NCBI RefSeq assembly: GCF_003334765.1
Contig: NZ_QOWT01000050.1
Direction: 5' to 3' (one strand)
Source of the DNA: Escherichia coli
GTDB taxonomy: Bacteria > Pseudomonadota > Gammaproteobacteria > Enterobacterales > Enterobacteriaceae
DNA length: 19,733 bases
The notes beneath the pieces are model-generated. The model made no database searches, had not been told where the DNA came from, and worked only from the letters and a program-made list of their open reading frames with translations. A program made the translations under genes and the position numbers. This document shows positions 3,659 through 5,655 of the stretch, piece by piece; within the stretch, counting starts at the first letter, position 1, and every line of letters starts with the position of its first letter.

Positions 3659-5380
3659 GGTTCTTCCGCAACTTGGGTGGAAGAAAATGGATGAAACTTT
3701 CTGGTGAACAAAGATCTAAGCTGTTTTAAGTCATGGGCAACTCAATGCACTCTCTTAAGACACTTCTACAGTTACCTTGCGGATGGCGATGCAGTCGACA
3801 AATTATTAGCTCTGACGGTATAACCCTCCATCTCCACGGAAAACGCAAAACAGCACAATGTCCTGAATGCTTTAAGCGTAGCGACTCTGTTCATAGTTGT
3901 CGTCGGCGCCGGATACAGCATCTACCCTGCTCAGGACATACGCTATGGCTTGTATTTTCTGTCCGCCACTGGTACTGCCGTAACCCGGCTTGTTCACGTA
4001 AAATTTTTGCCGAGTCGCTTGCTCCCTTCGCCGGTTCACACCAACAGTCTTCACAGGCGTTACAAAATTTACAACGTCAACTGGGATTAATCGCCGGAGG
4101 TGAGGCCGGGAAACGGGCAGCAACGGCAGTGGGTCTCCGTTGCAGTGCTGATACTCTCCTTCGCAGGGTTATCAATACCCCGGAGACGAAACAGTCAGGC
4201 TCGCCTCATGTCGGTATTGATGAGTGGGCGTGGCATCGGGGCCACCGTTACGGTACGTTAATCGTCAATCTTGATACTCACCGTCCCCTCGTCCTGCTTC
4301 CCGGCCGTGATCAGCGTACGCTGGCGACCTGGTTCAGAAAATATCCGGAAATACAGGTTGTCTCGCGTGATCGCAGTGGAGTCTATGCGACAGCAGCACG
4401 TGAAGGTGCACCTCAGGCCAGACAGGTGGCCGATCGATGGCATCTGCTAAAAAATATTGGCGATGCGCCTGAACGAATGATGTATAGACATATACCTCTG
4501 ATACGTCTTGTTGCCAGTGAGTTGTCACCAAAGAAATCACCTGATCCAGAACCATCTGTGCCTGCAGCATCGCTCCGTCGTCCGGAACGCCTAAAACAAC
4601 AAACCCGCAAAAAACGGCATCAGCGTTGGACAGAGGTTATGGCCCTGCATAACAAGGGATGTAGTTTCAGGGAAATATCCCGTATTACAGGCCTGTCGCG
4701 TGTGACAGTCAGTCGCTGGGTGCGTTCAGGAACATTCCCTGAAATGTCAACCCGACCGCCAAAGCGAGGGCTTCTGGACCCATGGAGGGAGTGGTTAAAA
4801 GAGCAACGAGAAAGTGGTAATTATAACGCCAGCCGGATATGGCGGGAAATGGTGGCCCGGGGATTTACAGGCAGTGAAACCATCGTCAGGGATGCGGTTG
4901 CCAAATGGCGTAAAGGCTGGAACCCACCGGTTACTACTGCCGTCAGACTTCCTTCAGTGTCCCGGGTAAGCCGCTGGTTGATGCCCTGGAGAATAACCAG
5001 GGATGAAGAAAATTATGCTTCCCGATTTATTAGTCTGATGTGTGAAAAAGAACCTGAGCTGAAAATAGCGCAGCAACTGGCACTCGAGTTCTACCGTATT
5101 CTGAAAACCCAAAATAAATCACAGCTAAGCAGTTGGTTCACTCGAGTCCACGAAAGCGGTTCAGCAGAATTTCGGCGCGTGGCGGCGGGGATGGAAGCTG
5201 ATGCTGCAGCTATATGTGAGGCAATCAGTAGTCACTGGAGTAATGGTGTTGTCGAAGGTCATGTAAATCGCCTGAAGATGCTGAAACGCCAGATGTATGG
5301 TCGAGCAGGATTTGAACTACTCAGGCAGAGGGTAATGAGTCCACTGGCATGAAAATCTCCACCCAGGTTGCGGAAGAGCC
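3659..5380 (+). mobile_element. ISL3-family insertion sequence, apparently intact (about 1.72 kb)
   Basis: Terminal inverted repeats: left GGTTCTTCCGCAACTTGGGTGGA (3659-3681) versus the reverse complement of the right end, GGCTCTTCCGCAACCTGGGTGGA (5358-5380), 21 of 23 matching. They enclose a single transposase ORF. No matching 8-bp direct repeats flank it (tgaaatca versus actttcat). Confidence 0.8.
3733..5352 (+). CDS. ISL3-family transposase
   Basis: 539 aa; Cys/His-rich N-terminal zinc-finger-like region (CPEC...C...H...CRNPAC), acidic DDE-type core, C-terminal HWSNGVVEGHVNRLKMLKRQMYGRAGFELLRQRV matching the conserved SNGxxEGxNxxxKxxKRxxYG motif of ISL3 transposases. Exact start uncertain (alternative Met at 3745). 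Confidence 0.85.
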   Translation: MGNSMHSLKTLLQLPCGWRCSRQIISSDGITLHLHGKRKTAQCPECFKRSDSVHSCRRRRIQHLPCSGHTLWLVFSVRHWYCRNPACSRKIFAESLAPFAGSHQQSSQALQNLQRQLGLIAGGEAGKRAATAVGLRCSADTLLRRVINTPETKQSGSPHVGIDEWAWHRGHRYGTLIVNLDTHRPLVLLPGRDQRTLATWFRKYPEIQVVSRDRSGVYATAAREGAPQARQVADRWHLLKNIGDAPERMMYRHIPLIRLVASELSPKKSPDPEPSVPAASLRRPERLKQQTRKKRHQRWTEVMALHNKGCSFREISRITGLSRVTVSRWVRSGTFPEMSTRPPKRGLLDPWREWLKEQRESGNYNASRIWREMVARGFTGSETIVRDAVAKWRKGWNPPVTTAVRLPSVSRVSRWLMPWRITRDEENYASRFISLMCEKEPELKIAQQLALEFYRILKTQNKSQLSSWFTRVHESGSAEFRRVAAGMEADAAAICEAISSHWSNGVVEGHVNRLKMLKRQMYGRAGFELLRQRVMSPLA

Positions 5381-5496
5381 ACTTTCATCCGTCGTTGACA
5401 CATGCATCACAACAGCTCCTCATAGGCACTCAGTGGTCGATGTTCCACCTGACTGATCTGCTGCCAGAGCGGGGCGTGAGGTTCCGGTACTATCTG

Positions 5497-5655
5497 CTAG
5501 CCAGACGACACTGAGCAGAGGCGATGTGAGGCCACCAGTTTCTCATTACTGTAGATCCGCAACTCATCGTTCAGCGATATTCGTATCGAGACTGGCTGAC
5601 CACACAGCATTTCGGGAACGCTGTACTGATTACCTCCAACTTCGTTATAGCGGGT
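5497..5655 (-). pseudogene. Remnant of IS21-family istA transposase 3' end
   Basis: Minus-strand translation ...RYNEVGGNQYSVPEMLCGQPVSIRISLNDELRIYSNEKLVASHRL... matches the conserved C-terminal pattern of IstA (N-x-YSVP ... V-x-IR ... L-x-IY ... VA-x-H). No upstream transposase body and no istB; truncated next to the ISL3 element. Confidence 0.35.

Follow-up and report, generated by a model that had tools for sequence, protein, structure and literature searches.

ISEc38 in a gutted IS100 of an Escherichia coli pheV island and probable targeting of IS100 terminal repeats by an ISL3-family element

Insertion sequences (IS) of the IS21 family carry two terminal repeats at each end, in which two boxes, CS1 and CS2, are split by an AT-rich spacer of ~10 bp. 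The transposase IstA reads the boxes CS2 and CS1 of each repeat with its helix-turn-helix motifs HTH-1 and HTH-2, which are connected by a minor-groove linker; it synapses two ends as a tetramer, and its integration requires two complete repeats per end (PMC10122671). The ISL3 family is characterized by inverted repeats of ~20–40 bp beginning GG(C/T)TCTT and by an 8-bp target duplication. One of its members, named ISEc38 in NCBI's Prokaryotic Genome Annotation Pipeline (PGAP) and ISfinder, consists of 1,722 bp with a 539-aa transposase and 23-bp inverted repeats. The subject of this analysis is an ISEc38 copy in a stretch of 19,733 nucleotides of Escherichia coli (assembly GCF_003334765.1, contig NZ_QOWT01000050.1), hereafter the window, which had been described from the sequence alone in an earlier note. 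This copy lies in a gutted IS100, a member of the IS21 family. Taken together, the evidence makes it probable that ISEc38 is targeted to IS100 ends, that recombination altered the left-hand context of the remaining IS100 shell and, less certainly, that this shell arose in two steps.

The window element matches ISEc38 in length, transposase and repeats, and shows 99.8–99.9% nucleotide identity over its full length to copies labelled “ISL3-like element ISEc38” by PGAP. It is therefore an intact, already named IS, and the element itself shows no difference from other ISEc38 copies. The termini open with GGTTCTTCCGCAAC..., fitting the ISL3 pattern, and the inverted repeats pair at 21 of 23 nt (91%). 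The transposase exceeds the cutoff of the NCBIfam profile transpos_ISL3 (NF033550; 375 bits, cutoff 180) and is also matched by the Pfam models DDE_Tnp_ISL3 (PF01610, in two pieces) and Zn_ribbon_ISL3 (PF14690). The repeats, the uninterrupted reading frame and the ISL3 profiles thus bear out the earlier note's view of an intact ISL3-family element with well-preserved inverted repeats. Of the span given there, 3659–5655, the start is correct, while the element stops at 5380 and 5655 marks no feature boundary. ISEc38-related sequence is widespread, being present in 3,391 of 5,426 complete E. coli genomes.

As the earlier note had observed, the element is bordered by unequal 8-bp flanks, the left one reading TGAAATCA and the right one ACTTTCAT, and mapping of the ends at the window locus revealed no offset that yields a duplication. 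This is a real anomaly, because a sister copy interrupting fliN in strain M8 (L012; L numbers denote fetched loci) carries a clean 8-bp duplication, ATTAAATA, on both sides directly at the 1,722-bp ends. Further sister copies likewise show the ISL3 hallmark (L102, ACTATTGC; L147, ACTTTTCA). The duplication therefore holds for ISEc38 as an element, and its absence from the window is secondary: the two ends of the window copy abut two different IS100 sites. Window positions 3613–3659 agree at 46 of 47 positions with nt 1–47 of an intact IS100 (1,954 bp, strain 28Eco12, L004); at IS100 position 4 the window has A and the other copies C. On the right, positions 5383–5400 equal the last 18 nt of IS100 exactly, and the match extends to 5381 if one T fewer is allowed in a T-run (20 of 21 nt), or becomes an exact 21-nt match when chance flank bases are counted. 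The same ends occur in five intact IS100 copies among the fetched loci. ISEc38 is thus lodged between IS100 nt 46 and ~nt 1934, and ~1.89 kb has gone, including istA and istB, neither of which is present between the tips, where only ISEc38 lies. In IS100 coordinates, TGAAATCA corresponds to nt 39–46 and directly adjoins the GATCCAG box of the left repeat L2 on its outer side; the right 8-mer, ACTTT(T)CA, corresponds to right-end nt 14–21 and borders the GATCCAC box of R1 in the same way. An inverted similarity between the two flanks (TGAAA/TTTCA) reflects the similar spacers of the IS100 repeats. The tips match the ends of intact IS100; unlike a functional IS100, the window copy consists of tips only, with no istA or istB, no second right repeat and no 5-bp duplication, and is a dead remnant.

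To survey other insertion sites, end contexts of the ISEc38 group were collected from a metagenome scan for the ISEc38 repeat and from look-ups of contigs encoding variants of its transposase; an exact-pattern scan of species-representative genomes for the repeat gave no match, in contrast to the metagenome scan. As repeated sequences, ISEc38 and IS100 both break assemblies, which biases the metagenome census against junctions between ISEc38 and the IS100 interior. Of 91 distinct end contexts, 83 abut an IS100-type terminus. These comprise 76 at a ~21-nt terminus, two at nt 46, one at nt 55 of the right end and four inner sides, which read 8 bp followed by GATCC; among the eight other contexts, two belong to the fliN copy. 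In genome assemblies alone, 27 of the 28 ends of 14 distinct copies lie in IS100-type repeats. The registers fall between nt 21 and 22 of L1 or R1, nt 46 and 47 of L2 and nt 55 and 56 of R2, each directly outside a GATCCA(C/G) box, and both nt-46 junctions belong to the window lineage. Insertion at fixed registers of IS100 repeats is thus recurrent, the independent events, duplication-bearing ones included, all lying beside GATCCA.

Individual loci illustrate the range of arrangements. In genomes of enterohaemorrhagic E. coli, ISEc38 lies between TGTCACGAACGGTGCAATAGT (IS100 left end, nt 1–21) and ACTTTCCGTCGTTGACA (right end), and on plasmid p720632_94 between two inverted copies of the right-end 21-mer. 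Simple insertions are represented by L102, L108 and L115, where the duplication ACTATTGC (L1 nt 14–21) is followed by IS100 nt 14–440, and by L147 and L150 with the duplication ACTTTTCA (R1 nt 14–21). Most copies, 11 of the 14 in assembled genomes, are “shells” with IS100 tips on both sides. Their tips occur as L1/R1, R1/R1, L1/L1 and R1/L1 in both orientations, and the two halves often derive from different IS100 copies. That ~21 nt of such sequence flank most copies on both sides, and that ~21-nt outer inverted repeats recur in distant relatives, could also be read as a mis-definition of the element, which would then be ~1,764 bp long with 44-bp inverted repeats. This is very hard to reconcile with the fliN copy, whose duplication lies directly at the 1,722-bp ends, or with the simple insertions, which bear 8-bp duplications and in which IS100 continues on the inner side. 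Furthermore, the outer 21-mers are IS100's own L1 or R1, occurring in every combination and in either orientation, true IS100 sequence extends further at the nt-46 and nt-55 junctions, and no 8-bp duplications lie outside the 21-mers; almost no credence is therefore left for the longer element.

Two further observations concern ISEc38-like sequences elsewhere. Matches of 44 nt (the repeat plus R1) in ~2,000 genomes were considered as a miniature element, which was rejected, since a degenerate ISEc38-like pseudogene at a single site ends with this sequence. This pseudogene (e.g. L164, E. coli K-15KW01, 555,167–555,210) occupies a conserved chromosomal site beside zinc-ribbon/Gp2 island genes, and its end, made up of the ISEc38 repeat, a 21-nt IS100 right-end tip and GATG, is the commonest context in gut metagenomes. 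In an ENA metagenome contig (L151), an IS100-tip/ISEc38 shell lies inside the transposase gene of another ISEc38 copy.

Several shells are themselves enclosed by outer duplications of 5–6 bp, a length typical of the IS21 family (CCTCC at L152, GTTTC at L162, TACGCT at L176 and GCATG at L226). In E. coli RSHH22 (plasmid CP096903; L153–L155), three shells carry the duplications GTAAT, CCATG and TCCCGG, which pair across copies. This is direct evidence that ISEc38-by-ISEc38 recombination exchanges flanks, and it implies three former IS100 insertions. The outer duplications of these loci, the CP096903 trio included, together with the abundance of shells, for which mobility would account, could indicate that a shell is a non-autonomous IS100 derivative moved in trans by the IS100 proteins IstA and IstB. 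IstA, however, needs two complete repeats per end (PMC10122671) and a 21-nt tip is shorter than one, so that such a tip should not be mobilizable by IS100 enzymes. The window shell, moreover, lacks a 5-bp duplication (AAAGC or GCTGG versus CATGC), and its junction is confined to a single locus in 27 of 5,426 genomes. Mobilization in trans accordingly has only a small chance of being correct, and since the shells should not be mobilizable, those with 5–6-bp duplications look like IS21-family insertions gutted in place.

For the favored two-step origin, the following sequence of events is proposed. An IstA-like module in the ISEc38 transposase would dock the enzyme on the IstA-binding repeats of IS100, leading to insertion beside the GATCCA box. 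In the window lineage, L2 and R1 may each have received one such targeted insertion, although this step is less certain; the insertions could have involved one IS100 or two copies, both being allowed by the lack of a 5-bp IS100 duplication across the shell. The two ISEc38 copies, in direct orientation, would then undergo homologous recombination, or an intramolecular transposition of equivalent effect would take place, and the DNA between them would be lost. A simple insertion at L2 (nt 46) would be recognizable by an inner junction reading TGAAATCA followed by GATCCAGG. A one-step route has also to be considered, in which the transposase complex captures two IS100 repeats together, one through each IstA-like module, and joins one ISEc38 end to each, thereby replacing the interior. 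Shells greatly outnumber simple insertions (the 11 of 14 copies given above), their halves often come from different IS100 copies, no doubly occupied IS100 occurs among the loci fetched, and IstA itself synapses two ends as a tetramer (PMC10122671), all of which would suit this route. Two insertions followed by recombination give the same products, and recombination between ISEc38 copies is demonstrably frequent (CP096903), whereas integration into two targets is not an established ISL3 activity. A one-step origin is thus rated as unlikely, though it deserves to be kept in mind.

A candidate basis for the choice of target lies within the transposase. The Pfam model DDE_Tnp_ISL3 is split between residues 295 and 413 of the ISEc38 protein by ~118 extra residues. 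This insert matches positions 2–104 of the NCBIfam profile transpos_IS21 (E 1.6e-16 to 1.6e-17), and it shares 34% identity with residues 9–98 of the IS100 IstA (E 2e-11) and 22% with the IS21 IstA. Its sole sequence matches in the PDB are to the IstA of IS5376 (8B4H, 8Q4D), residues 10–107 of which (E 1.6e-10), comprising HTH-1, the linker and HTH-2, align with ISEc38 residues 302–398. Three of the four contact residues named for IstA (PMC10122671) are identical or conservatively replaced in ISEc38 (R31/R323, T92/T383 and K95/R386). Because of this homology to the IstA module and the census of insertion sites, the insert is predicted to direct ISEc38 into the spacer beside the GATCCA box of IS100 repeats.

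Relatives from outside E. coli extend these observations. Elements from Enterobacter, Salmonella and a JGI metagenome with transposases 83–86% identical to that of ISEc38 insert in the same register, next to co-diverged termini, and in a TARA metagenome, a relative at 41% identity lies directly next to a 21-nt terminus, TGTCAG.... Transposases of the insert-bearing type are widespread. More than 2,300 clusters at 50% identity reach E ≤ 1e-30 with the full-length protein; the best 150 clusters listed are mostly 520–590 aa long, most of them aligning end to end, and the insert proved conserved when 15 of these relatives were aligned. Among relatives with 30–40% identity from other phyla (80 loci), a TGT terminus lies 19–23 nt out at 22 of 92 distinct ends, compared with 6 of 93 control windows (Fisher P ~0.001). 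Complete shells are found in Phycisphaerae, Ktedonobacter, Mycetohabitans and Nocardia, with 5–6-bp outer duplications in the first two, and simple insertions within TGTC... termini in Azohydromonas and a planctomycete. At seven loci from Streptomyces and others (L216, L228, L230, L233, L239, L231 and L200), the element is flanked by 8 nt and then a conserved GTGAAC(A/G)AAGCC-like motif in place of a TGT terminus. In Kitasatospora xanthocidica (L209), an ISL3 relative lies in a ~20-nt inverted shell which resembles an ISL3-type repeat (GGTTCTGGCTCAA...), an arrangement suggestive of nesting within the ends of a second ISL3 element.

The surroundings of the shell (Table 1) were compared across complete genomes. 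E. coli F1022 (OY754357) matches the entire window at 100% identity apart from one extra IS2, and ten further genomes are ~99% identical. In F1022 and MS14384, the order runs from the pheV tRNA gene through an intact tyrosine integrase, IS debris, MarR, an intact IS100 and IS66 debris to a cargo of ~22 kb (malX, agaR, acnB, citGXFEDC, a major facilitator superfamily (MFS) transporter, an amidohydrolase and GntR), followed by the IS100-tip/ISEc38 shell, the IS21 fragment and CP4-like island genes. The earlier note had placed the IS at the left edge of an island with a missing integrase. Neither point holds, as pheV (tRNA-Phe) and an intact tyrosine integrase lie ~29 kb left of the shell in genomes of the window arrangement (OY754357, LR130562), and the same island also contains the GntR, amidohydrolase, MFS and citrate-lyase genes on the left side of the IS. 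The shell thus lies at a module boundary within the pheV island.

The junction between IS100 nt 46 and ISEc38 is found once each in 27 of 5,426 genomes, of which 18 are of the GntR type seen in the window and nine of a MarR type (e.g. CREC-544, AR13438). In the latter, MarR is followed directly by the 46-bp IS100 tip, ISEc38 and the same right flank. The variable breakpoint is therefore the outer edge of the IS100 left end (between 3612 and 3613), 46 bp from ISEc38, and not an ISEc38 end. The two arrangements differ by a segment of ~24 kb between two directly oriented IS100 left ends, and the MarR/IS100 junction gaaaagc/TGTCACG is common to the intact IS100 of F1022 and the MarR-type shells. 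Recombination across the 46 bp of IS100 left ends would best explain this difference. A deletion from the window's type fits the MarR type having C at IS100 position 4, like the intact copy, where the window has A.

On the GntR side, the earlier note had proposed an alignment of the flanks with an IS-free genome; here, identity to the IS-free locus of CP048330 is ~98% and drops to ~65% from ~3566, over the last ~47 bp. The heptanucleotide GTAACGA overlaps the junction of the GntR side with IS100 and is also present in the CP048330 locus, making microhomology-mediated joining possible at this junction. The A at IS100 position 4 is confined to GntR-type genomes. Across the window shell, no IS100-type 5-bp duplication is seen (GCTGG versus CATGC, with AAAGC in place of the former in MarR-type genomes), although such duplications do flank intact IS100 copies in L004 (CATCT) and L001 (CGTAC). 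No 5-bp pair matches among the four outer IS100 junctions of a window-type genome (AAAGC, CGGTA, GCTGG and CATGC), and the order of IS100 events can therefore not be reconstructed.

These comparisons also bear on a scenario close to that of the earlier note, in which ISEc38 inserted in the ordinary way and then mediated a deletion of adjacent DNA, so that the left part of the island was lost together with the integrase and neighboring genes were truncated. The lack of an 8-bp duplication and the variation of the left context between genomes would be expected from such a deletion. The presence of the integrase and pheV ~29 kb to the left, the intact cargo genes beside the IS, a variable breakpoint at the outer IS100 end and the location of both ISEc38 junctions in IS100 ends all speak against it, leaving this scenario a slim chance. 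What stands of the suggested IS-mediated deletion or recombination is the loss of ~1.89 kb of IS100 and the existence of two left contexts, but not the shaping of an island edge.

To the right of the shell, the IS21-like fragment shows 92.5% identity over 320 nt to IS21 of the Shigella sonnei pINV plasmid and was mapped on its istA/istB annotation. NCBIfam gave no match for the lone 88-aa istA-like open reading frame (ORF), and the fragment was identified by comparison at the DNA level; PGAP calls it a frameshifted pseudogene with a stop, “Mu transposase domain-containing protein.” The istA remnant reported in the earlier note is thus genuine, and the concern that the similarity might be spurious can be set aside. 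Its spacing of ~120 bp from the IS is instead 20 bp, since 120 bp fits only the first recognizable ORF of the fragment, at 5497. The 316 bp of istA are what survives of an older IS21-like element in which IS100 had landed, and the fragment is a bystander with no bearing on the absent duplication.

Further differences between related islands were recorded. The extra IS2 of OY754357 lies at window ~10,200 between Gp2-like and Hha-like genes, and other close genomes carry insertions of ISEc31, IS3, IS110 or IS1414 in the same island. The F1022 cargo (L007, 14,500–16,500; L006, 1–9,600) lies between the intact IS100 and the shell's IS100 tip, which are in direct orientation; CP048330 (L008) also has this cit/GntR module, there in a different island and beside another IS100. 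In E. coli VTB97420v (L003), the pheV integrase is joined to window ~5649 inside the IS21-like fragment, an independent deletion without MarR, shell or ISEc38. A 226-aa ORF on the minus strand of the window (2848–3528), antisense to GntR and extending into the intergenic region, is unannotated in matching genomes and probably spurious.

Table 1. Coordinates of features at and around the ISEc38 copy in the window
Feature	Position	Strand	Basis
GntR-family regulator, last gene of the ~22-kb citrate-lyase/sugar cargo module	2622..3347	+	profiles, genome comparison
Strongly diverged tail of the GntR-side flank, meeting the IS100 left end	3566..3612	.	comparison with IS-free GntR locus of CP048330
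IS100 (IS21 family) left end, nt 1–46: repeats L1 and L2 up to the GATCCAG box	3613..3658	+	match to intact IS100
ISEc38 (ISL3 family), complete, 1,722 bp	3659..5380	+	identity to PGAP-annotated copies, profiles
ISEc38 left inverted repeat GGTTCTTCCGCAACTTGGGTGGA	3659..3681	+	23 nt, 91% complementary to 5358–5380
ISEc38 transposase ORF, 539 aa, uninterrupted	3733..5352	+	ORF list, NCBIfam, Pfam
Inserted domain, codons 301–398, homologous to HTH-1/linker/HTH-2 of IS21-family IstA	4633..4926	+	profile and PDB comparisons
ISEc38 right inverted repeat	5358..5380	+	pairs with 3659–3681
IS100 right end, last 20 nt (outer R1, one T below canonical)	5381..5400	+	match to intact IS100
IS21-like fragment, last ~313 nt of istA and first 7 nt of istB	5401..5716	-	92.5% to IS21

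Several points weigh against the proposed targeting and two-step origin. An IS100 with ISEc38 at both ends, the predicted intermediate, was not found in the loci fetched, and shells far outnumber simple insertions, so that a one-step mechanism may apply. The L2 (nt 46) site is seen in the window lineage only, and the metagenome census carries the bias against junctions with the IS100 interior described above. At the GntR-side junction, the proposed history cannot fully explain the GTAACGA microhomology together with the A at IS100 position 4. Among distant relatives, a TGT terminus is present at only about a quarter of the ends, and Streptomyces relatives show N8 followed by GTGAACAAAGCC in its place. 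This points to another specific target in actinobacteria, and the target evidently varies from lineage to lineage. Finally, the same domain is kept across a very large ISL3 subgroup and could chiefly bind the element's own ends.

With regard to the locus itself, a vague IS-mediated rearrangement has been replaced by an exact nesting of ISEc38 in a gutted IS100 in an IS21-like remnant. Annotation pipelines name ISEc38, which occurs in more than half of complete E. coli genomes, without reporting its location in IS100 ends. These IS100 tips explain why most ISEc38 copies lack duplications, and they flag many junctions at which islands and plasmids have been rearranged by ISEc38-by-ISEc38 recombination. 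In the full-text literature, no report of ISEc38 or ISL3 targeting of IS21-family ends was found (ISfinder entries lay outside the scope of the search), and ISEc38 appears in the literature found only within lists of mobile elements, without remarks on target choice. The homing of ISEc38-type elements to IS100 terminal repeats, which leaves gutted shells behind, thus appears to be new. If the proposed mechanism is correct, it would offer a compact and testable case of programmable-looking target choice acquired by domain capture in a simple DDE transposase, as well as of the inactivation of one IS family by another. On a broader scale, the balance is about even as to whether ISEc38 and the large cross-phylum ISL3 subgroup are specialized parasites of IS21-family elements, which would use a captured IstA-type module to recognize the transposase-binding repeats of their victims, insert 8 bp beside the conserved box and in the end replace the victims' interior, leaving shells of ~21 bp. 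In that case, target selection would have evolved by capture of the target's own DNA-recognition domain, and the resulting antagonism between IS would purge active IS21-family copies from genomes.

Comparable site choice is known from other insertion sequences. IS4321 and IS5075 of the IS1111 group use a single fixed insertion site within the 38-bp terminal repeats of transposons of the Tn21 family. Like ISEc38 as interpreted here, they target the terminal repeat of a different transposon family and thereby disable that end; unlike ISEc38, they have a DEDD rather than a DDE/ISL3 transposase, insert in a single orientation and are not known to make a target duplication. To our knowledge, they have no DNA-binding module homologous to the transposase of their victim. 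The “IR-targeting” of IS30 and the insertion of IS1397 and ISKpn1 into palindromes of the repetitive extragenic palindromic (REP) and bacterial interspersed mosaic element (BIME) type are likewise directed by sequence, as is proposed for ISEc38, but their targets are their own ends or host repeats and not the transposase-binding repeats of another IS family. A parallel to the inserted domain is offered by IstA of IS5376 and IS21, which carries the module at its N-terminus, whereas ISEc38 carries it inside an ISL3-type DDE domain and without an IstB partner.

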